Source: a virus. Taken from it: a stretch of DNA of 64,000 nt. The notes under the pieces are model-generated. The model saw only the letters and a list, made by a program, of their open reading frames with translations, did no database searches and was not told the origin of the DNA. A program made the translations under genes and the position numbers. The stretch lies in IMG/VR virus record IMGVR_UViG_3300045988_137301. One strand, 5' to 3'. Shown here one piece after another: positions 1 to 21,957 of this stretch (its first letter is position 1; each line of letters opens with the position of its first letter).

Positions 1-1699
1 AATGGTATTTCCATTGTTGAATCCCATTAAGCTATAGTTACCAGCGGAACCTCCCTTCAAAGAAAAACTAACAAGATTGTTTGATAGCACCTTATCCCCA
101 TTATACTCTAAAGTAATTACCTCTGTTGTGATCTTTAATTCTAAGGTATGTTCAATATTAGGATCATCTACTACCTAAGCTGTTATTTTTTTTTCTTGCT
201 AGGATTTCTAAAATAACTACGATATATCTACCCAGGCAATAGAGTCTATTATTTCCTCTGGGTCTAGTTTTACTCCAATTATCTCTCCGCTAGAAGAGTC
301 CGTAATACATTGATCATATTTTATATTTGCAACCTTAAATGTTCCAGATTGAGATCCATAGCTTATCTTGACGTTAAAGGGACCAACTCTATCAGATATT
401 ACGGAAGTGGTAGCGATAGCGTACATAACAATTCCAACCTTGATATTTTTATCGGAATTATACTACATTAGTAATGTTTTGTCTGCTTTTGTGTATATTT
501 TGTCAGAGTTATTATTTAACATTACCCCATATACCATGATACCATAGGAATAAGTTGGTGTAACTACTGACACTTCAGCCTGTACGGTTTCTCCGTTTCC
601 TTTATGTAATGTTAGAATACTACTCTCTACATCATAGTCCATAGAAGTTATATCCTATCCTTCGGCGCTGTCTATTTTTCTACATAAAAAGTCTTCAACC
701 TACATTCCAGACTTTCCATTCCATGCTTCGTCTGTGTTTTTTATTCGATTGGCATCTCCTAATTCTTCAAACTTTGCCATTTTTTAGTAAATTAAGTATT
801 TTTCCATGTATCATCTTGTAACCAAGGTCTATCTTGTATCCATGTACCACTGCCAAAACAACTTTTAATAGCATACACAGTAAGCCAAACCAGCTAAGAA
901 CCCTTGTATATAGCTCCAATATTTTTCTAAACCTTCTATTGAATTTCGTTTACTAATCCAAGAACGTCCTTTTGGACCTATAGTATTAGCTTACCATTTC
1001 TATATATCATGACTTAGCAAAATCTTCTTTAACCTTAGTTTTTATCTAACTTAGCAAAGTTAAATATTCATTATATTCTTCTACGACGCTTTCGTCTGAA
1101 CTTAACTACTAAGTATAGCTATTGTAGGAATTTATTAAATCAAACTCTTCATCTATTTTAATAAATGCTCTTATTATAGCTTTTACACAATCTTTATAAT
1201 TTGGTTGACCAGTTAGGTAAACCTGAATGAAACTGTACTAGGTTTCGATTTCCGTTCCTAATTCACTTCCCTCTTTAGACACTTCCACTTCTACCTCTTG
1301 TATGTCATAGTTATAGTAGTAGGAACCGTTTCCCAGTTTTTGAATCGTCTAAGGGTAAGTGTTTGCTTGTATTCTTCTTGGCTCTATCATACGGTGTGAC
1401 TTTAAAATTTATAGGAAATTCATATTTAAGTAACTAGTAGAACAGCCTTCTGCTGTTACTCTAAAAATAATAAGATTTATGATTGTAAATAAAATGCACT
1501 CTAAAACTCTTATTATAACTAACAATTTCGACAACGTGTATGTATTTGTTGTAGAATTTGGAAATGTTAACCCTCTACCCGTTCCAGTTAGAGAATTTTA
1601 ACCCTGTTAATTTTTCTATCTTTTGCCAAGTGGCAAGGACACTATTTATTTGAATAAATTAGTATGTGAAATGTTTATATAATAAAGCTGACATTGGAA

Positions 1700-1796
1700 T
1701 TGGCATTGCTGACTCCATTGTTAGAATTGAAATAGCTAAGCCTGGAATTGGACCCATTATTAGCGTTGCCGCCTACTAGCAGTGTTTTTTAGCCAA
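1700..1796 (-). repeat. Decayed AT-shifted copy of the Gly-rich 3' module of the tail-fiber gene, without a start codon
   Basis: Minus strand translates as KTLLVGGNANNGSNSRLSYFNSNNGVSNANSN, parallel to LRVGGSAFGSASGLGYFSSFTGVG of the adjacent tail fiber. Nucleotide alignment to 1905..1968 is recognisable. A TAA immediately precedes it. Confidence 0.45.
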
Positions 1797-1856
1797 CCAA
1801 CAGTATTATAAATAGCATCCTGTTATTAATTTAATATTTAAAATATTTATGTAAAA

Positions 1857-3929
1857 TCAATTCATTCTCGTAAGGCTTCGGAAGCCGACAGCGAAACCGG
1901 CAAGGCCGACCCCAGTGAAAGAAGAGAAATAGCCAAGCCCGGAAGCGGACCCAAAAGCGCTGCCGCCCACCCGCAGCGTCCTAAGAGCCGTAGAGGAAGC
2001 ATTACACCAATGATAGTCACACATATAAGTGGAAGCTGAGCCTCCAGTGGAAGAAGGAATAATTTCTCCAGTCTCTCTTAGGTCAAAAGATTTTATGTAT
2101 CCATCAGAAGCTATCTCAGAACCTGCAACTGTCATATCTTCTACTGTGTCTTTGAATAGGGAAGAATTTGAGGTGGTATATACTTCACTTGGCTGATTAG
2201 CAGCACTTCTCTATAATATTATTCCGTCTAGATTAGTCCAAATATCTCCAAAGGGATTATCAAAACCTCTCCATCTTGGAACCCAGAAATCATGAGTAGG
2301 TACTGTTACTGTTTCGCTTACAGTAGTTTCAGGAATAGTTAATTTCTTAACCCCAGAAAAATTACCAAACTCATTACAGTATCCACATGGAGTTATTGGA
2401 TTAGTAGAGTTATAACCACTCCAGGAGGTTTCTGTGTTCTACCAATCAGTAACTCCTGGTCCCATTCCTCCCTAATGATATCCATCAGATGTTAGCTCTG
2501 AGTTATAGGTATCCTGACAATTAAATGACGCATATTCTATTACATAATTCCAATAGAATATCCATTTATAGAATTCATAACACATTAACTCAGACCCAGC
2601 TGCCTAGGCATATCCTCTCATTACTGATCTTGAAAGATTTGTTCTTGGTTTTCCTAAATCAGTTCTGAATTTATCAGATTCAAGATAACTATCATAACTA
2701 TCCCTATTAGAACCTCCCCTAAACTAAGTTGTTGTGTTTACAACAGAAACAGCCTTCGGAGTTAAGGTAGTGTCTACAGTACATCTATATGCGTCTACCA
2801 ACATTTCTGGTATTTCTATCCAGGTGCTATCAATTCTTACTGTAGATATTCGTACCCATCTTATATCCCCATTCTATCCTGATTTTCCGTAGAATTTAGG
2901 AATGTGAACTCTAACTGTACCATCTGTTCCATCCAGTATCGAGTCTTCTCCATTTACTTTTTTGGACCAATCATTAGGATCTAAGTAGTAGTTTATAACA
3001 GAGCCATTAGCTACACATCCTTTGTATGCAGACTAGATCGGGAGAGATTTATGTAATAGTGGGTTACCTATCCTAGTAAGTTTCGGATCAGATACATTTA
3101 TATCCCACTGCACTCCGTAGGAATAAAGATCTTCATTACTACTTATCTCATTTATAGACTCCTGCATTGATTGCTATTTCTACTATATCAAGTTAAACTA
3201 TGCCTCTAATTTTGTACTGGTATCTGACCACTGAGCGGTCCCATCAGACTAAAAAACTAACATCTAACCTTCCTGACCTCCAGAGGGGATATGTTTGTTT
3301 CCAGAGGTAGAAGGATGAACGTAATTATTAGCATTGTTTTCTATCCCCTACAACTTCCGTTTTTCCTCGGAAGTATAATCATTTGTGGATAAACCTTTTC
3401 CCTCCTCTGATGTTACTTTAGACTAAAGCTCTGTATTTAATTCTTCTTCAGTAACCAAACTGTCAAGAATTCCTTGCAAGCCAGCAACGTCAGCAACGAC
3501 ATGGTTGTGAGCCTTGTCTGCCTTGGTTGCCAGTCCGTCAGTTACTTCAGTCTTAGTAGCTTTCTCATCCAGAGCGGTCTGCAATCCGGTGATGTCAGTA
3601 ATAGCGTGATCATGAACTTTGTCTGCTTTACTATCTAACTGTGTCTACAGATTTGTTATATCGGAAATTGAATGACTATGACCTATGTCTGATTTTTCCT
3701 CAAGAGAATCTAAGACTTCTCCTATATTTGTATCGTGAAGTTGTAATTCCTGAGCGAGTTCTTCTAGAGTATCTAAAGATTCCGGTGCAGCTCCAACAAG
3801 CTACTTAATTTTGTTATCAACTTCCTATTTACTAGCATAGGTCTCTGTAATTCTGTTTCCATTACTGTCATAGGTAGCTTTTATATCAAAGATCTGCCCT
3901 TTTACCTTAATATTTTTTATAGCTGACAT
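1857..3929 (-). CDS. Tail fiber protein (~690 aa) with multiple in-frame TAG codons (read as Gln)
   Basis: ATG at 3929, TGA at 1857-1859, start and stop in the same frame. N-term verified nucleotide-by-nucleotide: MSAIKNIKVKGQIFDIKATYDSNGNRITETYASK(Q)EVDNKIK(Q)LVGAAPESLDTLEELAQEL. Rougher translation further in shows HxH / DITGLQ repeats and 'EEKRKL(Q)GIENNANNYVHPS...GG(Q)EG(Q)MLVF(Q)SDG', a classic tail-fiber motif that is only canonical with TAG=Gln. C-terminal 92 aa matches the listed ORF. Confidence 0.65.
1905..1968 (-). repeat. 64-nt GC-rich segment identical (reverse complement) to 29242..29305
   Basis: Direct comparison: 64/64 identity. Encodes GGSAFGSASGLGYFSSFTGVG at the tail-fiber C-terminus. 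Local GC is far above the window background. Confidence 0.8.
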
Positions 3930-3930
3930 A

Positions 3931-4119
3931 TTATTCAATAATTAGTACCTCGTCACTCACAGTATGTTCATCTATTTTCTCTTCTAATTCTAATTGAAGA
4001 TCTTCTTTAGTGACATAATCTTCTAAAATTGAAGGGTCTACTCCCCCATAAAAGTTTCCAGTCATTTTTACTGGCTAAGTAGCTTTTTTAAACTATCCTT
4101 CTAGATAAATTATTCCCAT
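3931..4119 (-). CDS. Small hypothetical protein (62 aa) with 2 in-frame TAG
   Basis: ATG at 4119, TAA at 3931-3933, traced codon by codon: MGIIYLEG(Q)FKKAT(Q)PVKMTGNFYGGVDPSILEDYVTKEDLQLELEEKIDEHTVSDEVLIIE. Lies directly upstream of the tail fiber. Confidence 0.35.
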
Positions 4120-7100
4120 ATTAACTGCCTATATCAGTATTTACTTTTTCTTCTAAAGCTTCTAATCTCTGCAAGATAGGAGACAGTAAAGAATCTACTT
4201 CGCTTTTAGAGTAATAGTTGTTACTCACCCAAATCTAGCTCTAGGTTTTTGTATTATAATTCTGGTCTAAATATTGCTTGGTAACATAGACAAGATCCTC
4301 ATCTTCCATATCATATATGTAGTAATAAGTATCTTCCTGCAACTCTTCATTCTCCTTTAAATCTTCATACTCCTAATTTGAAAGAGTGACTAATTTTGGA
4401 ACATATGATTCTGTAGCAAGTCTATCATCTTCAATATATAGTCCGTCAGCTTTTAGTTCTACAACCAACTGACTCTCTCCAGCTTTTGGGGATTTTACGT
4501 ACTATACTGTTATACTCTCTAATTGCCCGTCTCCATCCGTTTTTAAGGTTTTATCTAAGTCCTCTTTTATTTGTTCCTAATCCCTATCATACTAGTTTTT
4601 AGTAACAAACACAAAATCATCCCCTTCCATTCCTTCACCTCTCAGACTTTCTTTTGTTACAAAGATTTCGTCTGTCTCTTTTTTAGTGTAATACTACCCT
4701 AAGGTAGTTGATAGAAAGGATTCGGGATCTTCTAGATCAAGATCTGTTATAGGAACATACTTTTCCTAAAGTTCCGATATTGTAGCATAATCGGATAGAC
4801 TCTCAGAAACCTTATCTAACTCCTCAGATAAACTATTTACGGAATCTTGTGAAGCTTTTTTGTTTAATTGATCTTCAATATTTTTCCCCCAACTGGCTGA
4901 TAAATAAAACTAATCTTGATTCTCTATACTATCTTCATAAATATAGTAGTATGAATCAGCGTGCAAGTAGGGTTTCTCCTAATCTATAGGCTTAAAGTCG
5001 TCTGTGGTATTAGCTCTTAGCTCCAAATATTCTTGTTCTGTGCAAGTTATTATTTGAATAGATTCATAAGAAGCCTTCCACCCTTCTTTAGTGTTTATCT
5101 AAGACTTATCAACAAGCATATAAATATTTCCGTCCCCCACATTAGAAACGGTCATACCCTGATAAGCTACATTCTTAGGAATAGAATATAATTCAGATAC
5201 TGAGTCAACTACAGTTCTATTATCCAAGGGTTTAGGAGCTTCTACAGTAAGAGAAACTCCCAAAACTGAGTCTCCTGTATATTTAAATGCCATTATTCTA
5301 CCAAGGTAAATTTAATTTGATGAGGTAGTACAGCAGAATAAGAGTCCTTCTTAGTCCAAACCTTATAGGTAAACTACTACATCTACTCAGTAGAAGTTTC
5401 CCAGCCGTTTAAATCTACGTCTAAATACCCCAATCCTCCGTTCACTTTAAATAATTCCAACTTTGAATTAGTTCCAGGAAGTTTTATAACAGCCCTTCCA
5501 TTTAAGGATAACTCTATAACTTCTGAAGATTTTCCAAATGGAATAAGTATCTGTTTAGAAGTACCTTCAGTATTTCCAGCGAACCACGGATATGTTGCCG
5601 TAATAATAGCTGACGTCTATATAGATCCTGCCTCTACTCTCTTATCTGTTACCTCTCCCTTATTATTTGTCAAGTATTCTCCTGAATCATAAGTGACAGT
5701 AGCAGAATAAACATACTCTCCTACAGAAGTATACTGTTCCAGATTCTAAATTTCCTGTTGTTTGTAAGTGACTTTCTCCTCTCTAGAAGTTTCCTCTCCT
5801 GCATCGTTTTTTATGAAATTGAGGATTGGTTTTAAATCATTACTTCCTACTTCAACTAACTGAGAGGATGGAGTATAATACAACTCTGGGTATATAAGAT
5901 CTCTAACATATGTTGGGAAAATTAGAGTATCTATTATTTCACTGAAAGGTTTTCCTTTTAATTTTTCTACTGTAGTTCCCTCTATAATAGTGGAAGTAGT
6001 TTCATCAGGGAGATTAGTTTCATAGGTTATGGATTGTTTTAGATTCTCTATATCCTAGGAGTTATTAGATATATTTTTCTAAATATTTTCTATGCTGGTA
6101 TCTATCTCTGTAATTTTGCTTTCATAATCCTTGACATAAAGTCCAGGCAAGGTTATCTCTGTAGGTTCTCCCTCCTCTCCTGGGTCCAGGATTTGTTTGA
6201 CTAAGTGAATAGCATTATCTTCTTTATCAGAGATAATTACTTCCAGAGAATCTTCTATTTTTATAGTTTTAGAATTTTCTAAATTTCTTGTTATCCAATT
6301 CTAAATGTTCTTATCAACATCAATATTTTCTATTGCTTCGTTGATATCAACTATCTACTCATTAATACTCTAAATACTAGTATTAATAAGTCCGATGCTT
6401 TCAGAATTTTCGTTGATTCTCTACTATAATTCAGATTCAGTTTCTTCTATAGACTACTTTACTTCTGCTATCTGCTAACTTAGCTATTCTATCTCTTCTG
6501 TATTATCCTCATATTTACTAATATAGTACAAAGCATAGTCCAGAGCATCTTTTACTGTATTTATATCTTCAGAAACGTCACTGCTATACTACCACTTTTG
6601 TTCTATATATCTGACTAAGTCTTTTTGTTCCTCTATAGTTCCGTCTATATTTCCCCATAGAAGACTTTGTTCATCAGCTATTCCTAGGTTTTTTCGTACC
6701 TTAGCCCTTTCTAACTCTGTTCTATACTCTCCTAGGTAATTATTTCTTAATAGAGGAATAGGATCACTTTTTATTGGTTTTCTCTTCCCGCAGGGGACGA
6801 TGTCTGCATTACTTACAGAAGTGTAAATAGGTTGTATCATCCTTATTAAGTAATTGCTATTTAACAAACTCGTAGTTATCTATCTTAGCAGGAAGACTTA
6901 TAAAACAGATTAAATTAAGTATATTTTGGTAATCTGGTTTATATCCTTTTTTTACTTTTCGTAAAAATTCCTAATATTCTTTAATGGCTTTTCTTTTAAG
7001 AGCATCCACAGCTTATATTTTTATGTTTATTATCAAGATTACTGCAAAATCCTCCACATGTTCTAAACATTGATAATAATCTTTCGGCCTCCATGAATTG

Positions 7101-10100
7101 TTTAAAGCCTATTAAATAATCTATAATATTGAGGGTCATCCAAATAAAATCCCTAGCAAATACGTCTTCATCATGCTGACTCGTTAGACATTTATTTAAG
7201 AGTCCATCAAATAATCTCTTACAATAATTGATATAACACTATTGTAGATTTCCCGTAAAAAATATATCAACCTTACACTTTTTAATGGTAGTTCCCTCTA
7301 TATTTCTCTCTAGTATTTCTCTAACTGTACATTCTTCCAATTTTCCTTCTACTTCTTTGTAGAGTTTTTCTCCGTCTGTTATATATATAGTATCATAATA
7401 CTCCTTGTATTCGTCTGAAGAATTCTCATACCATTTCATATTAGGAAGAATTATGTGATCTACTACATAATAGCCGTCTTCTTTAACTCTAAAAGTACAA
7501 GAATCTAAATCCTCTGTATGATCATTAAGTAATACGTCGATTAATGTAGCATCTCCTATACTTACTTTTATTATGGTGTTTAATGTAGCGCTCTCACTAT
7601 ACTTATAAGAATCGTAAGAAGTTACAACTTCTATATCTTCATCAATGTACTATCCATATTCTTTAGAAAAATCTTCTATAGTTATCTCACCATTAATTTG
7701 TGTATGAACATCAATACTAAATTCCATAATATTAAGATTCAGATTCAGTTCCAGGCCATTGTCCGTACTAAGCTGGAGTTGAAAAAGCTCCTAGTTTACC
7801 CTCTTGTCTAACCCTACTAGACATGAAAACTCTAGGGTAAGAGGGGCTAATGTCCCTAGGGTAAATACTCCATTCATAGTCTCCAGTTCCAGGAGGAAGA
7901 TTACTTAGTTTACTAGCAGGCGAACCATCACTATAAAAGTTGTAGTCATAGGCTTTAGTGGAAGTCACCTCAGTCGTCTCCTGACCATGTTCATCTATAT
8001 AAAGAGGATTTCCCTCTTCATCTTGTTTTTGTTTATATTCTATTATTGGTTTGACACCTTTTGTTCTAGCATATATAGTCTAAATTACCATAGCAGAATC
8101 ACTCGCTGCTATCTCATAGAATTCCTTTTTAACACTCCCACCTGCTGAGCTAAATGTGGTTTTTTTCCATGTGTACGGATATTCTTCACTGGGGACTTCA
8201 AAGGTGTCTCCCCAACCGTCTTGCTACTATTTTACTTTCTCCACGTCACTGGTATCTAGTCTTATATAACTTATAGAAATATCTACGCCTCCAACAGCTT
8301 CTGAAGAGTTAGTAAGATCATCTATTTGTTCTAGTATAAATTTTATATCCTCCTCTACAGTAGAATTAGTAACATTTTGTCTGGCTTCGCTCTTTACGAA
8401 TTGAGCATAAGTAGTAGGATATATTTTGTTTTTGTCCTTATCGTATAACTGTGTATCTGTCATAATTCCCTAATTTTATCATTATACGGATTACCGTCTC
8501 TTAACTAGGCTATTTCAATCTCAGTTCTTTTTTCTTCGATGTCTAACTATCTATCTTTGTAAGTTCGTTCAGTCATGGCTTTATACCAATTTACCTAATA
8601 TTCTAGTTGTATCTTCTACTATTCTAACTAAAGTCGAGATTCATCCAATTGCTATATCTTTTGCTGAGCTTTCTACAGTTCAGAAGATAGTTCTTGAGCC
8701 TATTGAGAGGTTTCTTCTAATTTTTCCTAGAGCTGCCTTAGCTAATTATTTTCATCTTTTTGAACTTGTATAGCTTTTTTAACCTTATATTTTAAGTCTG
8801 TTAAGCTCTTAGATGTTAATGCCTCAAAAATAATATCAGGATCTATACGCTAACTTTTTACAAACTCTGGAATCATCTATTTTATGGTCTATAAATCCTC
8901 CATAATCTCTGTACTAGAGATAACATGAACATCATAATCTGTAAGAGTAAAATGCTCAGGAAGAGCTGTAAATACTTGCTAGTATTTATCTCCCAGAATT
9001 ATAGTTCCCTATAATCCGTTCTTGTAAACTATTTTTGCCTAATTTAGGCTGTCTAGAAGTATTTCACAAGTTATAAGATCCATTTGCTAAAAATAAGGTT
9101 TTGTGATGGTGAACGAATTAGCAACTCCTTGTTTGATATTTGTTACCGCATCTCTCTATTCTATACCATTCAATCTTTCCCTAAAGACTCCAGTTATGGA
9201 TGAAGTAGTCTGTTCTACTGATTGTATAGCTAATTCTATTGCTTGGACAGCCTACGCTTTTAGAGTATCATCAAATCCGTTATATATTTGATTTGGGGGC
9301 TAAGCTCCATCATTATTTCCTTCCTAGGAAGAATCTATCCACATTATTCCTCCTTTTTTATAAGCAAGCCACTTCTATACTCTTTCTGGCCATTTAACTC
9401 CTAGATTTGTAGGAAGTAGATTCATGTCCATAATAACTCCAGAAGTTCCACTATTAGCTATAAGATTGTCTCTATAATAATTCAATAAATCATATCGATC
9501 CTGCAAATGTGCACACTTTAAAATTAAAGAATATGGTTGTTGAGACCTGTTTAAGAAATAGACTCCGTTTATAGAAAGTCCACAAAAGTTTGGATTACTT
9601 TTAGATCTTATTACACTTTTATCCAAACCTCTCAGAACATATATATTTTCTCCAATTCTAATAGTTGTATATCTTTGCATTACAAAATCATTGTCAGTCT
9701 CAATCCATTCTACTTCGTATACTGGTATTAACTGAAACCTATGAGTGTTGTATTCGTTATCTGGATAACCTGGGACAGAACTTTCATTCAAATCATCATT
9801 TACTGCGATACAATTATCTGCAAAAACCCTCTTATAAGTAGCTGCACCATCCCCATCATACCATCTGTCCTTTAGCTCTATTAAATCCTTTTTTGTTAAT
9901 TCCTTTCCATATTTGGCTAGTATCTAACTTTTTGTTAACCACCTTCTAACCACAGCTCTATAGGAATCTCTAACGTATGGAGATTCTGGATTTCTGTCTA
10001 TAAAGGTATTTAGCGGATTTAAGACTTCTATTTGAATATTCTTCTTGCTAGCAGATTGCTTTACTTTAAAGAAAGTGTAACCTGATATAAGGAGGTCAGT

Positions 10101-10819
10101 TAGTAACTATCGAAGTTTAGTCAGTAAATCAGTTTCTCTTGACTGCATTATATAATGAACAACATTCTAAGCAGCTATCTCATACTAAGAAATGAAGGAC
10201 TAATCAATATCCTAAATTATTTTGTCTAGCTAAGTCTTTACAGCTTTATCAGTAATATCTTTTCCATCTATGAACTACAAAATCGAGTTTGTAAGATGGT
10301 CCTTTAGAAACTTTACAATTCCTTCTGTAATTTTTAACTATTTCTCTCTTGTTATATTTGTGATAGTATCAGAGTCCTTGCAAGATATTTTAGGGAGTAT
10401 AGGAGTTCCTAGATATTCTCCCACCAGAGCATCAACATGTTTTTTCAATAGTGGAGTAAATTCTACAGATGTAGGAGAACCTATCCCAAAATTCTCTTCT
10501 AAATATCTAAACTATTCTGGGTCTCTTTTTCCATTGTAGTAATTATAAGCTTTCTACAATTCATACTTGTTATAAACAAGCTCCGCAATAGCCTCGTTTG
10601 TCTTGTCTATTAACTCTTTCTCTTTCATAACATAAATTATGTTGTTCTGGAGGAAGTTTAGTAGCGTTATAATATTTAACTCTCTATAGCTTCCTATTTC
10701 TTAATTCTTCCTTTATAAAGGGAAGAAATTCCTCATCTGGTAAGTCTGCTATTATTACTAGAGGCATTTCTGATCTGTCAAAATTAAAAGACACCTTATA
10801 TCCAACTGGATATAAATCC

Positions 10820-13186
10820 TCAATTTCTAATCCCCCTATATACTCCATCTTGTATAAGTCTTTCATATACCCGAGTATCACTTGTTTCAATTCTGTATGG
10901 GTCATTGTATTCTTCTCTCTATATATCAAATTCGGGAGGTTTTCTATCTGGAATAATTCCAAATCTTTTTATTCCTTTCTCATCATAATAGTAACCAAAA
11001 TCTCTAAACTATTCAACCTCTTTTCTTACAAATGATGGCTATCTTCCGGAAAGTTCCTAATCAGCTAGTTCAGTCATACCCATAGCTGCAATTATATCGA
11101 ATTTTCCTTTGTTCTCATCATTATATCCAGTTAGCTATTCTAACATCTCTTCAAACCATATAGTATGGCAATAATCTTCTACAAAAGCAGCCGTTAAGTT
11201 AGTATGCTATTCTATAACAGTTTTGGTAGCAGGAGTTCCATATTGTTTAGTGCTTCCATATTTTATATCCGTTAGGGTAGCCTTTGGTCTTTTCATGAAA
11301 TATCCTAAATATCCCTTTTCTTTTGCCCAGGTAACCATACTCATTCTAGTAGCTTCTATATTTATCTTACAATTATAATATCTAGCTAGGCACATAGCTA
11401 TCTTATATGCCTCTCTAATATCTCCTGGCCTATCCTTATATAGAGCTACATACTAAGGCTCATTAGTTCCAAATAACCTTTTCTTTATAGTTATACAAAA
11501 GTCAGAAGGGTTTCTAGTTTCCTTAGAAGTCTAGTTAGCACCAATATCTATTCCATCTATCCCTGCTACGTACAAATCATTCATTTCCTTGTAGACGGGC
11601 ATCTCGAACTCCTCTCCTCTTTCTTCTGCTTCCTGCCTTAGTTTCTCTACTTGCTCCTTGTATAAGTCCGACCATACAGGGTGCTCTAGAATTTTTACTT
11701 TCCCCTTATTATTTGGAATCCACTTAAATCCATCAATATTATCCTAAGTATGTTTATTGTTTTTATAGAAATAGTCTATATATCCAACCTCTATTCGTGG
11801 ACCTATTTTCTTCAACCTGATGTTAGCTAACTAATCTGCAATAAGTATTTTATTAAACTTATTTATTCCCTCTAAGTTGAAAGCCTCTTCAGCATTCCAG
11901 CAACGTTCTGCACATTTTTTTAGGTAGTCCTCTGGTACAGCTAATAGATTATCCCGCTCCTCCTATAAGAATTTTTTATACTCCACAGTATTACATACTC
12001 CTCTGTGGTCCATGAATTCTGGATTCAAAGATTGTATAAAGTATGGAATAAAGAATCCACTCTCTATAGTAGTTCCGTCCTGAGTCCAATTATGTCTAAA
12101 TGGGAGAACCTTATAAGCTCTAGGATTATAATAGATTTTTTTTAAACCTTCCAAGGGAGCGCCCATATCTCCACCAGTTCCTCCAAATAACATGGTCCCA
12201 CGAGGCATACCCTACACCTCACAAAGTTCTTGACCTTGTACTACAGCAGTGTCAAGTCCTGGCCAAGATCCTGCCTCATCATATATTAACAAATCAACAC
12301 GATCTCCTCTAATATTAGATGGCTTGGAACCATTTTTTCCAACTACCTCTGATTTGAATCCTATGTCTTCAAACTAACCATTTACTTTTATCTATTTTCC
12401 AGATTTTTTTCTCAAATCCTAGTCAATTAGGCGTAGTTTGAAAAATCCTCCGCCTGTACAGGTATTTAAAAACGTCAAAGCATTGTCAAATTTACTGAAC
12501 GTTCCCTTAAGGAACATATCATTAAAGCAGGTAATCATGACTCTACTTCTTCTAATAACAGAATACATACGAGCGGAAAGAGAGGCGTTTATTTCAGAGA
12601 AACCTATTGAACGAGCTTTCATTAAGGCCGCATGCTTATGTAGCACCCTAGCCATCTATAGATAATGAAAGAACATATAATGTGATGCAAAGAATATTGG
12701 GAAGTCATTATCAGTACCCTCACCAGAGGCTTTCTACTAGTCAATAGTAGGTAATTGATAGAAGTTTAAGAAGAAGTAATTATCTCCAGTAATGGTATAT
12801 CCATTAACTGTCATTCCATACTTACATCTTCTATATTGTTCCTTCCAGAACTCATTATATCTCTTACTATCTCTAAGGTAGGGACAATACTAACCAGTTC
12901 GCCTATATATTTCTCTGGTTTCTGTAAACCAATCTGGATCAAAATCAAGACCATGTGTTTCGTCAATAGGTCTATATCCTGTTATTTCGTAAGATAAGGT
13001 AGGATCAAATACTTCTATTTTTTCTCCCTTTTTAACATCCCAGTAATCTGCATTCTTGTCTCTCTCTTCTCTTATTTTCTAGACAAGCTGCCTCGCTTCC
13101 TAGGCGTCCTCTTTGTATTCTTTTTCCTTTACCTAATCTATTATACTCTATATTTCTTCAGGCAATATTTTCTTCTTCCTTGGCAT
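10820..13186 (-). CDS. terL: Large terminase subunit-like protein (~788 aa) with many in-frame TAG
   Basis: Frame traced from ATG ~13186 to TGA at 10820-10822. Contains a Walker-B-like RVDLLIYDEAGSW and a nuclease-domain-like DLYVAGIDGIDIGANQTS. Embeds listed ORFs 12419..12655, 11963..12208 and 11207..11395 in one frame, joined through TAG codons. Confidence 0.5.
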
Positions 13187-13188
13187 AA

Positions 13189-13749
13189 TCAAAAGTCTCC
13201 TGGGTCATAACCATCAACTGCTCCTGCTCTTACAGTTGACTGTTCTGTAAGTTCTTTCTTAACCTAATCTTCTAGAGTTACCAATTCCTCATGAACCTTA
13301 TGTAAGGTGGCCATTTCTTTCATTACCTTTTCTGCCTAGAATATTGGTTTTCCGTTATTATCCCGTTCATTCAGATCCACAATAGTATCAAAATAGTCAA
13401 TAAACTAGTCCGCAGCTCTCTTTGCGGCTTCAAGCAACTTGATTGATTTGTTGGAATCTTGCAATGCTCTATATTTTCTGCAAGCTTCTCTAAATATAGG
13501 ATCATTAAATTCTGACTCAGTTAGTCCAGAGTCACTAATTGCTTCGTCATGTCTCTCATGTTCTGAATATTGACTATACGGACTTTTCCAATCAATAGCT
13601 AGATAGATATATGTTAGTTCTCTAGTAGCCCTATCTTTTTCGATAGATTTATCTCTCTATATTAAGGCTTTAAATTCCTTTACTAACAAAAGCTCAGGTT
13701 CATTTATTTCTAGCTACTTATTTAAGGTATTGTAATTAAACACATTCAT
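13189..13749 (-). CDS. Hypothetical protein (~186 aa), candidate small terminase, with in-frame TAG
   Basis: ATG at 13749, TGA at 13189-13191, 2 nt upstream of the terL ATG. MNVFNYNTLNK(Q)LEINEPELLLVKEF... Confidence 0.35.
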
Positions 13750-14630
13750 ATAACATTGGCATAAATCGTTGATTTGTATTATTTTCTTCTAACCTTAGAG
13801 CCACATTTCATTTTAGCTCCACATTTTCCTTTTCTTTTCATAACTATTAAGGTTTTCTGGGATCGTGTCCACTTTTCTTACTATTAAAATAATCTTTCTC
13901 GCTCGCTCTATTTTTCTCCTCTTGAGTAGCTTCCTTTGGATTAAATCTAGGATATTTGGTTCTTCCATTTAGGTCCTTAATACCTTTCTTGGTATGAATA
14001 GTATCATTAGGATTAATGGATTTTCTTTCCTATTTGAACTTCTGCACTGCATTTAATTTCTTCTATGTTTTTCCTCCCTTTTCCATCTATTTCTTTTGGC
14101 AGGATTTACATAGCTTTCCCCCTACTTTAAAGTAAGTCATTTCATAGCCATCGGGACATACTCCTTTTAATTTTTTATAATATTGTAGCTTTGCTCCTAA
14201 TCGAGCCATTACTCCTCCCTACATTTTCTGTATAAATTCTTGATATTTGGCTTTTAGTCCTTCTTCTCCTAGTTGTTCGGCGTAGGACTGTAAATCCTAT
14301 TCTGATTGTAGCTAAATTCCCTAGGCGGCCGCATCTTGAATTAAATAGGCCATAAATGCTTTTTGTAATTCTTCCTGATTTTCCATTGTTCCTTTAATTT
14401 CTATTTATTATTTTATCTAACTATCCTTTATTAGGATAAGGTCTTTGGTATTGAATATCGCTTCCTGAAGTAATCCGCTATCGGTAAACCATCTACACCT
14501 TAACCCTTTTAATCCCTGGTTATCTTTAAATAATGCTGCCTCTTTTCTTAGTACAAGCATTACTGGAGAGTGCATTAACTCGTGCTATCTTAGAGTAACG
14601 CAATCCCCAGGCTTAAAATAAATTTTCTCA

Positions 14631-15233
14631 TCAATAGTTTCCATGTTTCAATTCATCTCTTCTCTCAGTTAATTTCTCATTAACTACAGCCATTATTCTG
14701 TTTTCATTAACTACTACAAATCCTAATTTGTAGAATGGGACCATACATTCACTAGCTATGGTATAGAATACTATATCTCCAGGTTTTAAAAATTCGCATT
14801 TATGTCCAACCTCGATAACAGTTCCTACCTTGATAAATTGCTGTTCCTCCTCTATTTCTCCAGTTTCATTAGACTTATAGGTTGGAGTAAATCCACCTAA
14901 ATCTGTAATTAATCCACTTTTCGTAGTTTTGATTTTTTGAAATGGATTTTGTTCAAAGGGTTTAATTAGTGCATACCCATACATGGGCATTATTTCTACT
15001 CCATTCATATCCTCCGATAAGGACTTAGCATAGGATTCTAATGCTTCATTGTGTTTTGCGAATTTATCTTCAAGTTCATCTACTGCAGTATTAAACTTTT
15101 CTTGTTTCTCTCTCAATAATGTTTGATCTGCAGCTTCTCCATTCATAATAAAGTGCTCTCCTGTACCTTCCATCCCGGTTATAGCTAATGCCATCTTTTC
15201 TTTACTGTTTAACTCTGTTCTTAATGTTTCCAT
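14631..15233 (-). CDS. GroES/Hsp10-like co-chaperonin domain protein (standard code)
   Basis: Listed ORF. C-terminal KVGTVIEVG...LKPGDIVFY pattern is typical of the GroES fold, cf. T4 gp31-type co-chaperonins. Confidence 0.4.
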   Translation of the reverse strand: METLRTELNSKEKMALAITGMEGTGEHFIMNGEAADQTLLREKQEKFNTAVDELEDKFAKHNEALESYAKSLSEDMNGVEIMPMYGYALIKPFEQNPFQKIKTTKSGLITDLGGFTPTYKSNETGEIEEEQQFIKVGTVIEVGHKCEFLKPGDIVFYTIASECMVPFYKLGFVVVNENRIMAVVNEKLTERRDELKHGNY

Positions 15234-15239
15234 AATTCA

Positions 15240-15491
15240 TTACCATTTACCTAGATCACAATGTTCATTATCTACTCTAGTTTTATTCTCTAGTATACAT
15301 CCACACTCCCTACATACTTCTCCTAGAGAAGTATTTAGTTTAGCGGAGCATTTTCTGCAGATGTTTAATCTCTTTATTGACAAATCTTGATTTATGCCAA
15401 GTATATTAAACCACATACTTTTTAGTATTGTTAAAGGCTTGGTAAATATTGCCTTAATCCATTTCTTAGATATTTCTTTAGTGAGTATCAT
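15240..15491 (-). CDS. Small Cys-rich (zinc-ribbon-like) protein
   Basis: Listed ORF with CRKC...CRECGC. Confidence 0.35.
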   Translation of the reverse strand: MILTKEISKKWIKAIFTKPLTILKSMWFNILGINQDLSIKRLNICRKCSAKLNTSLGEVCRECGCILENKTRVDNEHCDLGKW

Positions 15492-15534
15492 ATAAACTTT
15501 ATTTGGGTTGCTGGAATTCCGTATAATAATTCAT

Positions 15535-15750
15535 TTACCATTTTTTAGCTGGACAATGTTTTTTCTCATTAGGTATCTTCAATTCTAAAAGGCACCCACA
15601 CCCCTTTATGTATCCTTTTTTTGGACTAATGCTTATGTCGTTACTTTCTGGATTCAAATATAGTTGTCCATTACATACTCCATCTTCCTGGTTACATATT
15701 GGACATCGTCTACATATCTGCCATCGTTCTTCTATTTCTTCTAGTGTCAT
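15535..15750 (-). CDS. Small Cys-rich (zinc-ribbon-like) protein
   Basis: Listed ORF with CRRCPIC...CGC...HC. Confidence 0.35.
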   Translation of the reverse strand: MTLEEIEERWQICRRCPICNQEDGVCNGQLYLNPESNDISISPKKGYIKGCGCLLELKIPNEKKHCPAKKW

Positions 15751-15752
15751 AG

Positions 15753-16667
15753 TTAATATTCAATACGTTGACGTCTTTTTCTATTTTCTGCTAATATAGA
15801 TTCTTTCTTATAAAAAGATAACATCTTAATTACTTCATCTTTTAAGTAAGGTAGGTGATATACTGCCATATTATCAGTATGATCGAAGTGTACCAAAACT
15901 AAGTCTTCAATCTCAAATTCTGGGTTTAACTTTTGAATCATCCAAGCATAGGTGCTTAATTGAAGACAATAATGATTAAAATTACAATCATCCAAATTAT
16001 TTAAAGGATATTTCATTTTCACTGATGACTTATTTTTTGAATCAAAAAAGCTCTTTGTTTCTATTTTTTTGTTAGTCTTCCAGTCTCCGATAATTATTTT
16101 ATTACCTTTTTTAACTAATAAGTCGATTTGTCCTGCTATTCTAAGTTTCCCATCTTCAGATACTCTAGATATTAAATACTCAGGGTATATACCATTTTCT
16201 AAGTCTAGATTATTATGGTCCTTTATACATTCAAACTTACCACCTATTTGATATTTACTAAGATCTATATCTTTTTTCTTTTTGTAAAATGAGTTTTCTA
16301 AATCTGCATGAATTCTAGTTCCTCTTTCGCAAGAATTTCGATTTTCTTCATCCCACATATCTAAGATAGTTTGCTGTTCTTTGTTGAACTCGTCTTCGGT
16401 AATATTATGAAGTTCAAGCAGAACTTTATCAAATTTCTTAGTATTCAACAGAGACTTTTTTTCAATAGCCCAATCTTCTTTAGATAGGAGTTTCTCCAAT
16501 GCTTTGTAAGCGGACCAAAACTCTTTATCAAATGGTTGGGTGAAAGAATGAATTAGAGTTGTTACTGATATAAACTTCTGTTCTGGTTTTGTAACATCGT
16601 AATAAATATGAGCTTCCTCTTCAAAAGCTATATTCCCATTTTGTTTTGTAATTTTACTTTTGTCCAT
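15753..16667 (-). CDS. PD-(D/E)XK family nuclease/exonuclease
   Basis: Listed ORF. 'GQIDLLVKKGNKIIIGDWKTNKK' matches the D...(D/E)xK core of RecB/Cas4/lambda-exo-like nucleases. Confidence 0.5.
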   Translation of the reverse strand: MDKSKITKQNGNIAFEEEAHIYYDVTKPEQKFISVTTLIHSFTQPFDKEFWSAYKALEKLLSKEDWAIEKKSLLNTKKFDKVLLELHNITEDEFNKEQQTILDMWDEENRNSCERGTRIHADLENSFYKKKKDIDLSKYQIGGKFECIKDHNNLDLENGIYPEYLISRVSEDGKLRIAGQIDLLVKKGNKIIIGDWKTNKKIETKSFFDSKNKSSVKMKYPLNNLDDCNFNHYCLQLSTYAWMIQKLNPEFEIEDLVLVHFDHTDNMAVYHLPYLKDEVIKMLSFYKKESILAENRKRRQRIEY

Positions 16668-16872
16668 TAATCATAATTCATTTAATCATTTGTCATATTT
16701 ATCTATATTTATTTGATACTTTTCAAGTATATTAATATTCTTTGTAAGACACAAATTAATATTGAATAGAATAACTTAAAAATACAAAACATGAATAAAA
16801 ACGAAGAAACCTCAGAAAGTTGGCATTCTAACTTACTCAATAAGTTTAGAAATATCACTATTGGAGCAGCTA

Positions 16873-17822
16873 TGGCAGAAAGTCCTGCAGTAATGATTGC
16901 TTCCGGATGGAGGCAAAATAATAAAGGAGATTATGTTCAGGATTAGCAAGATAGTGAAGGAGTTAAACAGTTGAGGGACAATTTATCTAGTATTTCTGAA
17001 ATGTCTCCAACTAATCCAGCAGGAGTTACTCTATTTGGAATAGGCAGGGGAATATAGTTTGGGTTATAGAAACTTCCCCAGATATAGAAAATGTTAACAC
17101 ACCCTACTTGGCAAAAGATATACCATGGTAGCCCATTTAATTTCACATGGAAATAGGCTAGAAACTCGTCAAGGAGTAGCATAGGATTGCATGTTACCCC
17201 TAATAAGAAGATTGCAGATTCTTTCAATTCTGGAAGTCCTGTTCTTGAGGGATACGCTCCTAAGCCCAAAGTAGAAACTATAGATATCGGATTCAACAAT
17301 TATGATTTAGTAAATCCTAAATATACCATGTAGGCGAAGCCGGCAAATAGCGGAAACTATTACGATATTGTTCTTCCAGACACTAAAAGAATACAAATGT
17401 TAGAAAGAGCAGGAGCTAATCCAACCATTTCTGTGAAGACAAAAGGCAAAAAGAGTGGAAATATTTATAAGCTAAACACTGAAAACACTGTTAATCTTAA
17501 TTTACAAAAAGAATTGAAATTGTCTAAATCTGCAACGCAAAAGGCAAATAATATTATACAAAGATCCAGAGCTGATTTTTAGAACAAGGATGAGATACTA
17601 AATAAGGAAACTTCTGATCTACTATCGAAAGACGGAGTTAAAACAATTAGGTATCAAAATGTTAATCCTACAGAAGGAGGTGGTGGGGAATCTTGGATAC
17701 TAACCGATCCTTCTATAGTTTGGAATCCTACCTGGAAACCAGTAGGAATTAATTTAGATTTTAGAAGAATCTCTCCTTTAATACCTTTGATACATGAAAA
17801 AATTGATAAAATTACTGAATAA
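16873..17822 (+). CDS. Hypothetical protein (~316 aa) with ~8 in-frame TAG
   Basis: Frame verified triplet by triplet from 16873 to about 17520, then joined to the ORF listed as 17397..17582 and on to TAA at 17820-17822. There is a 1-nt frame ambiguity between my count and the ORF track near 17397/17520. Confidence 0.4.
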
Positions 17823-17925
17823 TTATATCAAAAATTACAGAATAGAAAAGAGATATAAGAAAGAACATAAAGAATTTATAGAGTCTTTTCCCTTTATTAG
17901 AACAGAGAAGGAATATAAAAATATA

Positions 17926-18201
17926 ATGAATAAAGACTATAAGAATATGTCAGACTTAGAAAAAGAATAGGTGACACAGTATATAGGTATTCAATGTAGT
18001 TCCTTTACTACTAATAGTTATTGGGTCAGAGTATCTAGTTAGGATACAGAAAGACATTTAAGAAAGGAAATAGATATATTTGAATTATAGAAACATCTTA
18101 GCGATCCTACATTAGATAGTCCTTCAGATATATATTTAGGAGGTATACACTTTATATTAGATAAATTAAATTTAACATATTCTATATACAGAAACATTTA
18201 A
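17926..18201 (+). CDS. Small hypothetical protein (91 aa) with 3 in-frame TAG
   Basis: ATG at 17926, TAA at 18199-18201: MNKDYKNMSDLEKE(Q)VTQYIGIQCSSFTTNSYWVRVSS(Q)DTERHLRKEIDIFEL(Q)KHL... Confidence 0.3.
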
Positions 18202-18494
18202 TGAACAAAGTAGAAATATTAGGATGTCCTATTTTTAAGAGCGGAATTCGTATTAAAAAGGAAAATAGAGGTAAATTTACAGCTTCTGCCAAGGCTGCGG
18301 GATAGTCTGTGTAGGAACATGCAAGGTCAGTGTTAAACGATCCAAATGCAACCCCCTTGTAGAAGAAAAGAGCGAACTTTGCTAGAAATGCTAAAAAGTG
18401 GAAACATTAGATTGGGGGAGTTCTGAAAATGTATGAAAGTTTCAATGGGCATTTCGATAGTTATGCTGGGAATTTAAAAAAAAAGAACTTCCTA
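18201..18494 (+). CDS. Small basic hypothetical protein with in-frame TAG
   Basis: ATG overlaps the previous stop (TAATG). Frame traced to TAA at ~18492. Confidence 0.25.
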
Positions 18495-19012
18495 AACACT
18501 AGGAAGGAGGCAAAGCATGGATCACTAATTGGTTGAAATCTAGATAGGAGTAGTTTCAAAACAATTATAATGAAGCTAGATTACGTGTAAGAAACGATGC
18601 AGAAAATATAAGTAAGCAACCATACTGGGATAATCCAGAAGAAGTCTACTCTAGACTAATGCAGATTAGACATGATGCAAACCTCAAACCTGACTAGACT
18701 ATAGATAGTTAGATGTTAAATAAAATAAGAAAGAGAGTCAGTCCTCTATTGAATCAAACATTTATGAATAGATATACTGATGATTCCTTACTTAAACTAT
18801 TTAACGAAGTTGCTTATTCTAATAATAGAAATTATGAAATATCATGATGTTGTAAATTTATCTAAGCTGGGATACATTTTTATGTTACCTAAATTTGTAG
18901 GATATTTTAAATGGGATTTTGGTAAGGATTGTTTAATTTTTAACAATAAGGATTATAGATGCAAAGCAGACAAATTAGATATTTAGAATAGAGACGATTT
19001 TTATTATATTAT

Positions 19013-19246
19013 ATGAAGTTTATTTCTTTCTTAAAAGATGTAGTAACCTCATAGTCTGGAATTAGTAGCAAAAGAGTATGTGGACTACTTGGGTGGTTAT
19101 TGTGTTTAGGAGTTCTAGTGTATTGTACTGTTACTTCTAAATAGGCTCCAGTTATGATTGATACTATTGTGTGGTGTTGTATGGGATTGCTTGGAATTGA
19201 TTCAGTAACTGGAATATGGAAAAAGTTTGATAAGAAGAATGTATAA
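19013..19246 (+). CDS. Small membrane protein (77 aa, two hydrophobic segments, holin-like) with 2 in-frame TAG
   Basis: MKFISFLKDVVTS(Q)SGISSKRVCGLLGWLLCLGVLVYCTVTSK(Q)APVMIDTIVWCCMGLLGIDSVTGIWKKFDKKNV. Start and stop are in frame (231 nt). Confidence 0.35.
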
Positions 19247-19253
19247 TAAAATA

Positions 19254-19293
19254 GGTGAGCCTAGATTTAATTGTCTAAGCTCACCTATTTTTG
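19254..19293. terminator. Rho-independent-type terminator hairpin between convergent gene sets
   Basis: ggtgagc...gctcacc stem followed by tattttt. Confidence 0.4.
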
Positions 19294-19500
19294 GTTGTTA
19301 CATTCACAAGTGATTCCATTTGGTCCTGCCCACCAATATTTGTCCAAAGATGGGGTTCTGATACCGCTGGGCCAGTTATAAGCTGGAGTAATTTCCTCTA
19401 CTATAGCTTCCATTATCTTAAATAGTGTATCTAAATCTAGCTCCGGAAGTAGCTCATGAATATTAGTTATTGTTTTCTTATAGTCTATCATATCCTTCAA
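19285..19500 (-). CDS. Hypothetical protein
   Basis: Listed ORF. Confidence 0.35.
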   Translation of the reverse strand: MKDMIDYKKTITNIHELLPELDLDTLFKIMEAIVEEITPAYNWPSGIRTPSLDKYWWAGPNGITCECNNQK

Positions 19501-20202: not shown

Positions 20203-20267
20203 TATTATATATTTTTACCTAACCGAGGTGTTGCCCTACTAGGATTCGAACCCAGACTAAATGATTT

Positions 20268-21267
20268 CATTTTACACCGTTTTGCGGATTAGACTATCAC
20301 ATCCAGTCCTAAGACCAGTCCCTCTGTTTAGTCGTTCACGCTGCACGTAAATACTGCTTGCGCCTTGTCACTTGTTTGCTTCCAAGTCAATTAAGAGGGA
20401 TTCTACTTAAAGGTTATTTATTATTCTTTAAGCATCCAATAATTTGAAATAATAATTATTCCACAATTTATCAATGTTTCTTAATAGAGTATTTCTACAG
20501 GTTTTTAGTAATTTAGTTTTAACTAAATTATTATTCATTAAATATTCACAGCATTCAGAAATAGAACCAAACCTATTTAATTCTTCCATATTAGAATCAT
20601 ACTGTATAATATATTTCTGATTAGACTTTCCAAGTCCTGCATCTGAAATAATTTGTTTTATAACTGAATGTTTTACATTTAATACTTCTGCGACCTTTTT
20701 CTGATTTTTTAATTCTAGATATTTTCCTATAACTAAATCTTTTAACTCTTCTGTAATATCATATTTAGATTCAGTTATTTTTTGATTTCTAGAACCATAA
20801 GTATCAGTCTGACTGTGGCAATTAGGACATAGAAACCTTAAATTCTCTAACCTATTATCATTGTTTTCACCATTAATGTGATCAAGTTCTAATGATAATG
20901 TTCTTCCATTCCACTCTGTTATTCCACATATAGCACACTTGTAAGGAATTAAATTATCCTGTATAATTGTTCTCCTTAATATATTTCTATTATGTTTAGA
21001 ACCTTTACAAAACAATTTATCTTTATCTATTTTTTTAAGTTCATTACTAGTTGCTATTGCAGACTTTCCTCTAAAATTCTTTCCTGATAAATTAAGATCT
21101 GTCATTCTTTGTTTAACTTGCGAATATCCCCATGAATTTCCTTTCGTAGTATAACCAAGTTTAAATAAAACTTCTGAGGTGTTAAGACTTGACTTAACTA
21201 AGTCTATAAATTCCTCGTCTGTAAGTTTATAAATTTTATTTTCCATAATTATTAATTCAAATTCTTA
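20268..21267 (-). mobile_element. Group-I-like self-splicing intron (~1.0 kb) carrying an HNH homing endonuclease ORF
   Basis: Interrupts the tRNA anticodon loop. The 3' region contains a P7/R-S-like stretch gaacgactaaac...gatagtctaatccgc. The ORF fills most of the intron. Confidence 0.45.
20428..21246 (-). CDS. HNH homing endonuclease (intron-encoded)
   Basis: Listed ORF. CAICGITEWNG...ELDHINGENNDNRLENLRFLCPNCH is an HNH motif. Confidence 0.65.
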   Translation of the reverse strand: MENKIYKLTDEEFIDLVKSSLNTSEVLFKLGYTTKGNSWGYSQVKQRMTDLNLSGKNFRGKSAIATSNELKKIDKDKLFCKGSKHNRNILRRTIIQDNLIPYKCAICGITEWNGRTLSLELDHINGENNDNRLENLRFLCPNCHSQTDTYGSRNQKITESKYDITEELKDLVIGKYLELKNQKKVAEVLNVKHSVIKQIISDAGLGKSNQKYIIQYDSNMEELNRFGSISECCEYLMNNNLVKTKLLKTCRNTLLRNIDKLWNNYYFKLLDA

Positions 21268-21957
21268 AGAGTCATCTGTGCTCACCATTACACCATAGGG
21301 CAATATTTATTTCTCCTCTTTTAGTTTCTGTAACTCATTTTGGAGTCTCTCATTATCCTGTAATAAAGCCTTTATGTTAGCATCAAGATTTGCCAAAATC
21401 ATTCTTATTTGAACTATTTGCTCAAGCATATTTAGATAGGGCTTTTATTTTATTCTTTGCTACTGTTGATAAGGCTTTCTTGAATTTAATTATTCCGGCT
21501 CTTACTGAATCTATATTATCGCTATATATACATTCCTGGATTCTTTTTAGTTCGTCGTTTCCCAGAAATTCACAAACTGATACAAATAAATCATCATCTA
21601 GCTCTTCTATTTCTCTTTGAAAAGCTCTAGCTTCATTATCTTTATAAGAAATTTCTATTCTTAAAGAATTTTCATCTGAATTTGATTTTAAAGTAAAACC
21701 ATCGTTACTATATTCATAGTATCTATTTTCATTAATAGCTTTTACTAGTTCATTAAACTAGTTCTCGTCAAAAAATGTTTCTAAATTTGTTTTCATAAGC
21801 TTCTTTTGTTTTAGTTATATACAACTATATGGCCATGATTGTTAAATACAAAGTTAAAAAATTCTAATTGAAAATTCTTAAATTTTAATTATTTAGTCGG
21901 AAACAGGTACAGGTACTTTATATAAATATCCCCCTGGGGTTTTAATAAATCCGGAAT

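Follow-up and report, generated by a model that had tools for sequence, protein, structure and literature searches.

The DNA analysed here (the window) is a 64,000-nucleotide (nt) stretch of IMG/VR virus record IMGVR_UViG_3300045988_137301. Its first 19 kb hold two blocks of late genes in which the stop codon TAG serves as a sense codon, and the remainder encodes early genes and an array of transfer RNA (tRNA) genes. At one position in this array (site A), a tRNA gene with the amber-suppressor anticodon CUA is split by a long insert that carries an HNH homing-endonuclease gene. At another (site B), a second tRNA gene with a suppressor anticodon, UUA, lies directly downstream of a RAGATH-14 RNA. 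The positions of these features are collected in Table 1. From comparison with related phages we propose, with a probability of roughly 0.6, that a mobile group I intron with an HNH endonuclease interrupts the anticodon of the amber suppressor needed by the late genes. A preliminary description of this DNA, made from its letters without database searches, had recognised the recoding of the late genes; the decoding machinery, namely the split tRNA(CUA) and the tRNA(UUA), is absent from that account.

We determined how far each stop codon interrupts the late region. Counting stop-to-stop open reading frames (ORFs) of at least 150 amino acids (aa), ORF coverage of positions 1–14,600 rose from 3.8% under the standard code to 88.2% with TAG as sense, a gain of about 23-fold. 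As controls, coverage stayed at 3.8% when TGA was taken as sense and reached 19.8% with TAA as sense, a noise-level gain of the kind expected from losing the commonest stop in AT-rich DNA (the GC content of the window is 34.5%). With TAG as sense, 15 long late frames comprising 5,265 codons were obtained (minus strand, 1–14,404; plus strand, 16,686–18,847). Their coding frame contained 157 TAG and neither TAA nor TGA, whereas all three stops were present in the two non-coding frames (TAG/TAA/TGA, 193/230/63 and 119/253/228). After start codons were set, 18 late genes with 5,091 codons remained, in which 153 in-frame TAG codons and no in-frame TAA or TGA were counted. These genes terminate at TAA (11) or TGA (7), contain 2–34 TAGs each, and have their first TAG at codons 9–84. 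The 35 early genes (8,817 codons) contained no TAG at all and ended at TAA (26) or TGA (9). These counts confirm that the TAG recoding of the late genes is real and far beyond chance.

Thus, the proposal that the TAG-rich frames on the minus strand of the first 14.6 kb and in a plus-strand block end only at TAA or TGA was borne out, including the coding-density and per-frame stop statistics by which it was to be checked. The two recoded blocks were also recovered, with the corrections that the plus-strand block starts at 16791 instead of 16.9 kb and that a few TAG-bearing genes lie beyond 19250. Two of these are the genes at 21422–21796(−) and 45433–45732(+), which are exceptions to the otherwise accurate statement that early genes are clean standard-code frames; 19267–19491(−) is possibly a further one.

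The recoded translations have full-length homologues. PHROG profile alignments of the tail protein, the portal and TerL each span many TAG positions when TAG is read as glutamine (Gln), and the TAG-flanked segments are therefore not separate small genes. Three short ORFs that had been assigned to one terminase-like gene (12419..12655, 11963..12208 and 11207..11395) all fall inside the single TerL gene. In the tail-fiber sequence GG(Q)EG(Q)MLVF(Q), quoted earlier as restored by recoding, the first Q is an ordinary Gln codon and not TAG.

The amino acid encoded by TAG was read from codon alignments with related genomes. In an alignment of TerL with two relatives, the TAG columns were mostly occupied by CAA or CAG in the other genomes. 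Across all late genes and 11 relatives, 452 pairs of TAG with a sense codon were obtained, of which 152 were Gln (CAA 92, CAG 60), 59 lysine (Lys), and 59 glutamate (Glu). With the substitution profile of every residue, taken empirically from the same alignments, as the reference for scoring, the log-likelihood was −1194 for Gln and −1652 for the runner-up, Glu; the 452 pairs share phylogeny and are not independent, and the margin is nonetheless very large. Since TAG pairs with CAA and CAG far above any other codon, these alignments indicate that TAG is Gln in the late genes, the assignment that had already been considered most likely. Counted in this way, the Gln-type codons of the 18 late genes are TAG (153), CAA (88), and CAG (46), so that TAG is the majority form (53%).

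To locate the tRNAs involved, 80 related loci around the adjoining radical-SAM-like gene were collected and scanned. About 30 relatives carried an intact, nearly invariant 73-nt tRNA(CUA) at site A, on the opposite strand to site B and 2.4–3.4 kb from it. Both halves of this gene were located in the window by searching with the relatives' site-A sequence. The junctions read ...GACUCU/UAAG... and ...AAAAUG/AAAUC. Because the 5′ exon ends in ...GACUCU and the insert in ...AAAAUG, the insert lies between anticodon bases 35 and 36 (CU/A). A U precedes the 5′ junction and G is the last base of the insert, as is the convention for group I introns, and the same holds in the homologues. The joined exons form a canonical cloverleaf tRNA(CUA) with 99% identity (72/73 positions) to the intact gene of the relatives.

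The joined exons were also compared with the other isoacceptors of one relative (locus L007), among which tRNA-Gln(UUG) was nearest at 71% and the rest were at 64% or below. A position-by-position reading gave 75% identity to the relatives' second tRNA-Gln(UUG) variant, with only 5 differences in 52 positions when two acceptor pairs that are swapped, and the anticodon arm, were excluded. This kinship to tRNA-Gln(UUG), a gene that is absent from the window, supports charging of the tRNA(CUA) with Gln. The site-A gene was missed by a standard ARAGORN run and by Rfam. ARAGORN with the -i option reported an intron of 1,000 nt in the window and introns of 955–1,004 nt in several homologous loci. 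It labelled the window gene Lys(CUU), because a cloverleaf also results when the intron is displaced by 2 nt; the CUA reading is favoured over this one by the intron-terminal G and by the intact orthologues.

We then examined whether the insert resembles a known class of intron. Homologues of its HNH protein were found on 22 IMG/VR contigs, all in the same place in a tRNA-like gene, giving 23 loci with the window; their 5′ exons end in ...CUCU and their 3′ exons start with AA(A/C). R- and S-like elements, GAACGACUAAA ... GAUAGUCU, are present in the final ~180 nt of the insert, and a fold can be drawn in which a P2-like hairpin, P3, P4/5, P6, P7, P8, and P9 follow one another as in group I introns, P7 forming a pseudoknot over P3. 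Covariation was assessed on an alignment of 20 sequences, 18 of them distinct. Standard pairs occupied 99.2% of the cells in the core pairings, compared with 32–48% when the 3′ partners were slid by 1–3 columns. Compensatory changes were present in 19 of 42 core pairs (114 cells), and the covariation score was reached by none of 500 shuffles. A looser core motif was found in at least 119 IMG/VR stretches, 14 of which were called intron-bearing tRNAs by ARAGORN -i with the ...CTCT 5′ junction; an exact-match IMG/VR scan for a 20-nt word of the core returned zero. From these sequence comparisons we conclude that the insert is a conserved, structured intron of the group I type, which would be self-splicing. 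It is probably spliced out to give a working suppressor tRNA.

The standard tRNA scan of the window detected 16 tRNAs, with the site-B gene as the sole suppressor. The site-B anticodon is CUA in most relatives, UUA in the window and seven other loci, and CUG (Gln) in locus L022. Ochre-type UUA anticodons read UAA and, by wobble, UAG, and in Escherichia coli the tRNA-Gln suppressors supE and supB have CUA and UUA, respectively. The tRNA(UUA) could therefore contribute to TAG decoding by wobble. The site-B gene resembles an additional suppressor under weaker constraint, and it may be active. No credible TAA-interrupted gene was found when TAA codons flanked by long ORF halves were searched across the window, the TAA share of terminators did not clearly differ between the UUA and CUA clades (0.62 vs 0.66), and an exact-match IMG/VR scan for the tRNA(UUA) anticodon arm gave zero hits.

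The tandem of RAGATH-14 and the site-B tRNA was also present in five relatives; over the window and these five, the scores were 151–181 bits and the distance between the RNA and the tRNA was about 27–55 nt. This conservation suggests co-transcription or a shared role; a literature search on RAGATH-14 found no relevant paper. The region just upstream of RAGATH-14 (23923–24219, plus strand) is ~80% conserved in 25 relatives as judged by tblastn. Its sole ORF contains three TAGs and has an implausible protein sequence, and the region may represent a leader or another non-coding RNA. In locus L023, a Pistol self-cleaving ribozyme (7194–7262, plus strand; 63 bits) lies ~1.3 kb downstream of the site-B tRNA.

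Two alternatives concern the recoding itself. Under the standard code the late region looks non-coding, with its 3.8% ORF coverage, and the TAG-interrupted frames could in principle be pseudogenes in decay, separate small genes in a row, or an artefact of assembly. Such explanations retain a negligible probability in view of 157 TAGs against zero TAA and TGA in the coding frame, profile alignments that continue across the TAGs, and thousands of full-length homologues, with the same pattern in dozens of independent contigs. The other alternative is that TAG stands for a different residue, such as leucine (code 16), tryptophan (Trp), Lys, Glu, or pyrrolysine (Pyl). ARAGORN labels CUA tRNAs ‘Pyl’ by default, Lys and Glu occur opposite TAG 59 times each, and the shifted intron allows the Lys reading of the split tRNA. 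We nevertheless consider this very improbable. Gln is 2.6 times as frequent as the next partner and exceeds it by more than 450 log units on the substitution profile, the suppressor is closest to the tRNA-Gln(UUG) of the relatives, and one site-B orthologue carries the Gln anticodon. The Lys reading requires an intron-terminal A instead of G and is at odds with the intact orthologues. Machinery for Pyl was not seen in the window, and TAG was shown by proteomics to be Gln in other crAss-like phages (PMC9523058).

Several observations weigh against the proposed mechanism of late-gene decoding, including the split, spliced suppressor. The Rfam model Intron_gpI (RF00028) gave no match in the tRNA insert region of the window at E ≤ 1, and none at E ≤ 0.01 when the tRNA inserts from 16 homologous loci were searched, although the 820-nt ORF may defeat this model. 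A P1 helix with an internal guide sequence was sought manually and by script with nothing convincing; the sole recurrent candidate was a ‘UGGGG’ ~135 nt into the intron, which lies inside the ORF and also codes for Trp-Gly. At site B, the tRNA of the window has C54, where the relatives shown have the normally invariant T54, and the anticodon loop is damaged or ambiguous in loci L012, L013, and L019. Readthrough at TAA, the most frequent terminator, would also be expected of an efficient UUA tRNA; recoding of TAA was not seen. A few TAG-bearing genes stand among the early genes, as described above. No gene for release factor 2 (RF2) or glutaminyl-tRNA synthetase (GlnRS) was seen among the scanned proteins of the window, which covers about one third of the genome; an accessory RF2 or aminoacyl-tRNA synthetase is an optional trait of phages recoded in this way. 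Finally, the sole lysis-type gene, a glucosaminidase at 41693–42187, has no TAG, unlike the published bias towards lysis genes; holin and spanin genes were not identified in the window.

If the intron were not spliced, site A would be dead and only the atypical tRNA(UUA) would be left. The corresponding alternative is that the HNH element killed the site-A tRNA(CUA) and that TAG is read only by the tRNA(UUA), through U34–G wobble. The failure of the Rfam model and of the P1 search fits this scenario, as does the presence of a tRNA(UUA) that folds as a tRNA. Within its close clade, moreover, only the window has the insert, and the insertion could be recent and unselected. Even so, we regard this scenario as unlikely. 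The insert has exact group I-style ends (U before it and G as its last base) and a P3/P7 pseudoknot core with 19 compensatory pairs in 20 aligned sequences. At least 22 diverged phage contigs have it at an identical site and with intact exons, which would not be expected of dead genes, and the exons of the window itself are essentially unchanged. Furthermore, the tRNA on which the alternative relies seems to be the less constrained of the two, given its C54 and the damaged anticodon loops of its orthologues.

The overall mechanism, in which phage suppressor tRNAs let TAG be read as Gln in the virion-assembly genes, is very likely. It builds on what the sequences show: the recoding, the Gln identity, the two tRNA genes, the exact exon junctions, and the covarying intron core. 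As the early and replication genes lack TAG and end at TAA or TGA, they would be translated unaided by the standard-code machinery of the host. Late mRNAs, with their first TAG within 9–84 codons, would give only short stubs until a suppressor tRNA is present. The phage would then express its own suppressors, from site A after loss of the 1,000-nt intron and from site B, and host GlnRS would presumably charge both. Late mRNAs could then be read through at their 2–34 TAGs each. The steps that we infer are self-splicing, GlnRS charging, when the genes are expressed, and how the suppressor would compete with host release factor 1 (RF1).

Table 1. Positions of the suppressor tRNA genes, the intron, and the recoded genes (coordinates refer to the window unless a locus is named)
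Feature	Position	Strand	Evidence or remark
Site-A tRNA(CUA), 5′ exon, 35 nt, ends with C34 U35	21268..21302	minus	34/35 positions as in tRNA(CUA) of relatives
Site-A tRNA(CUA), 3′ exon, 38 nt, starts at A36	20230..20267	minus	38/38 identical to relatives
Group I-type intron, 1,000 nt, in anticodon	20268..21267	minus	core in last ~180 nt
HNH homing-endonuclease ORF, 272 aa, no TAG, inside intron	20428..21246	minus	Pfam HNH; phrog_10822, E 1e-42
Conserved 124-aa gene just upstream of split tRNA	21422..21796	minus	one in-frame TAG at codon 13
Site-B suppressor tRNA, anticodon UUA (ochre type)	24478..24548	plus	58 bits to tRNA model; C54 in T loop
RAGATH-14 RNA, directly upstream of site-B tRNA	24281..24451	plus	Rfam RF03145, 174 bits
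RAGATH-14 in relatives	L006 8537-8728; L007 7229-7435; L016 6509-6715; L019 8554-8749; L023 5579-5772		
Late block A, 14 TAG-recoded virion genes	1..14644	minus	ORFs with TAG as sense, profile matches
Block A gene, partial	1-783	minus	7 TAG
Block A gene	792-1010	minus	
Block A gene	1007-1390	minus	
Tail protein	1857-3929	minus	18 TAG; phrog_5302, E 2e-80, residues 236-686 of 690
Block A gene	3931-4119	minus	
Block A gene	4121-5293	minus	11 TAG
Block A gene	5293-6840	minus	16 TAG
Block A gene	6996-7877	minus	3 TAG
Block A gene	7732-8463	minus	4 TAG
Portal	8460-10628	minus	34 TAG; phrog_6547, E 8e-49
TerL	10820-13186	minus	23 TAG; phrog_6681, E 4e-61, residues 90-713 of 788
Block A gene	13189-13749	minus	5 TAG
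Block A gene	13847-14386	minus	7 TAG
Block A gene	14408-14644	minus	2 TAG
TAG-free island, four genes between both recoded blocks	14631..16667	minus	
GroES-like protein, in TAG-free island	14631-15233	minus	
PD-(D/E)XK exonuclease, in TAG-free island	15753-16667	minus	
Late block B, five TAG-recoded genes without assigned function	16791..19246	plus	7, 3, 4, 2, and 3 TAG
Homing-endonuclease C-terminal domain ORF, 99 aa	45433..45732	plus	four in-frame TAG; phrog_559, E 9e-23, spans all four TAGs

The affiliation of the phage was assessed with TerL. In tblastn searches, TerL matched crAss-like phages only, the top matches being two unannotated human-gut records (MT835470 and MT835539) with 43–45% identity; identity to named crAss-like genomes reached ~29%. 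A large protein collection contained 2,633 TerL homologues, many at 73–86% identity, with source contigs of 180–195 kb. The DNA of these relatives fails to give the stored protein under the standard code, and since the stored proteins need TAG as sense, the relatives must also be recoded. At the nucleotide level, megablast of 12 kb against deposited phages gave no match, and blastn returned only three unannotated human-gut records at ~66–69% identity. One relative (P0004) has an intein in its TerL, and the window itself contains at least two group I-type introns and several homing endonucleases.

On the strength of these matches we identify the window as part of a large crAss-like gut phage, about one third of a genome of ~185 kb. 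The preliminary description had likewise recognised a crAss-like pattern, which agrees with the TerL matches and with published examples (PMC7886860, PMC9523058). Membership of the Zeta group fits the genome features, namely size, GC content, the large tRNA array, the TerL intein of the relative, and the intron load. A genome of 145–192 kb with dense introns and inteins is expected of this group, and the relatives' contigs run to 180–195 kb.

Among the neighbouring genes, the four TAG-free genes between the recoded blocks do not fit the simplest published model. Nor does the homing-endonuclease ORF with four TAGs in the early region, which represents either a mobile gene with recoding or a fragment in decay. 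The region from 19.3 to 64 kb encodes helicases (one of which is DnaB-like), AAA ATPases, RNase H, an SPFH protein, the glucosaminidase, and endonucleases, along with 17 tRNA or tRNA-like genes. NAD metabolism had been listed among the early functions, and a nicotinamide phosphoribosyltransferase gene was indeed found there; together with a phosphoribosyltransferase-domain gene it forms an NAD-salvage module at 50741–53487(+). The DnaB-like helicase gene (59453–60541, plus strand) is followed by a LAGLIDADG endonuclease ORF (60958–61818) and an Rfam group I intron (61621–61877, 57 bits); this arrangement, at 59453–61877, probably reflects an intron in the region of the replication helicase.

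The tRNA array showed further irregularities. A tRNA-Met(CAU) of the relatives is split in the window into halves at 34439–34465 and 35175–35218(+), ~710 nt apart. The insert holds an HNH-type ORF (34526–35182), and the 5′ half is followed by an additional element that resembles a T arm. This gene may be another tRNA with an intron; in this region, Rfam gave only a weak tRNA match at a permissive threshold. A tRNA-Glu(UUC)-like gene at 41291–41394(+), with 45 bits, was missed by standard ARAGORN and has a 33-nt insert in its variable region that resembles a second T arm, CACAGUUCGAAUCUGUG. It had been considered as a hidden CUA suppressor and was rejected on its UUC anticodon. At 27559–27643(+), a chimeric tRNA-like sequence matches a relative's second tRNA-Tyr over bases 1–74 and the 3′ part of tRNA-Pro at its 3′ end. 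Missing from the array are tRNA genes present in relatives, namely those for Gln(UUG), Lys, Pro, His, and Phe. It also includes a gene for a small protein (35314–35724, plus strand) with a tRNA ligase cyclic-phosphodiesterase domain (PF08302, E 6e-9), the product of which may be part of an RNA-repair function.

Recoding of TAG to Gln in crAss-like phage late genes, among them those of the Zeta group, is already published (PMC7886860; PMC12386605), and the recoding described here is accordingly correct but not new. For annotation of the window, TAG needs to be read as Gln. As far as could be checked, the intron-split amber suppressor and its UUA companion are undescribed. In the literature searched, no suppressor tRNA of a phage was reported to contain an intron, and a review of 2014 placed all phage introns then known in protein-coding genes (PMC3984707). 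Judged by the searched literature, the site-A insert would be the first described case of a group I intron in the tRNA gene of a phage.

If our interpretation is correct, the production of every virion protein hinges on an RNA-splicing step, which possibly adds an RNA-level checkpoint to the early-to-late translation switch. It would also tie the fate of the homing endonuclease to the one tRNA gene that all recoded relatives must keep. The result illustrates that suppressor tRNAs can hide from routine tRNA scans. About 60% of TAG-recoded phages were reported to lack a detectable suppressor (Borges et al., bioRxiv 10.1101/2021.08.26.457843). Because standard ARAGORN and Rfam miss the split tRNA(CUA), intron-split suppressors could account for some of these phages.

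Among known systems, the Zeta phages (PMC7886860, PMC12386605) are alike in having a large AT-rich genome, sense TAG confined to the virion block, a tRNA array with a tRNA-Sup(CUA), and many introns and homing endonucleases. They differ in that the published tables list intact CTA or TCA suppressors or ‘none detected’, whereas here the CUA suppressor is split by an intron and a second suppressor site carries UUA; moreover, the TerL of the nearest deposited phage records is only 43–45% identical. The same reassignment in the same phage order was proven for code 15 by metaproteomics (Peters et al. 2022, PMC9523058), in other phages. A switch of late genes and lysis by stop-codon recoding has been described (Borges et al., bioRxiv 10.1101/2021.08.26.457843). 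It shares with the window the standard-code early genes, suppressor tRNAs among TAG-free genes, recoded structural genes, and a TAG that is nearly unused as terminator. It differs in that the only recognisable lysis-type gene here is without TAG and the window yielded neither a release factor gene nor a synthetase gene.

Bacterial tRNA introns, as in cyanobacterial tRNA-Leu(UAA), the tRNA-fMet with its own endonuclease, and Azoarcus tRNA-Ile (PMC3984707), provide the closest parallel for the insert. These group I introns likewise lie in the anticodon loop, follow a U at the exon end and finish with G, and have a compact core with the P3/P7 pseudoknot, P8, and P9. In contrast, the insert described here interrupts a phage suppressor tRNA, lies between bases 35 and 36, carries an HNH gene, and gives no Rfam match. 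For site B, the series CUG to CUA to UUA across the relatives resembles supE and supB of E. coli, and these variants form a natural series for the evolution of suppressor anticodons. Unlike those laboratory mutants, the suppressors of the window are natural phage genes that would decode 153 codons.

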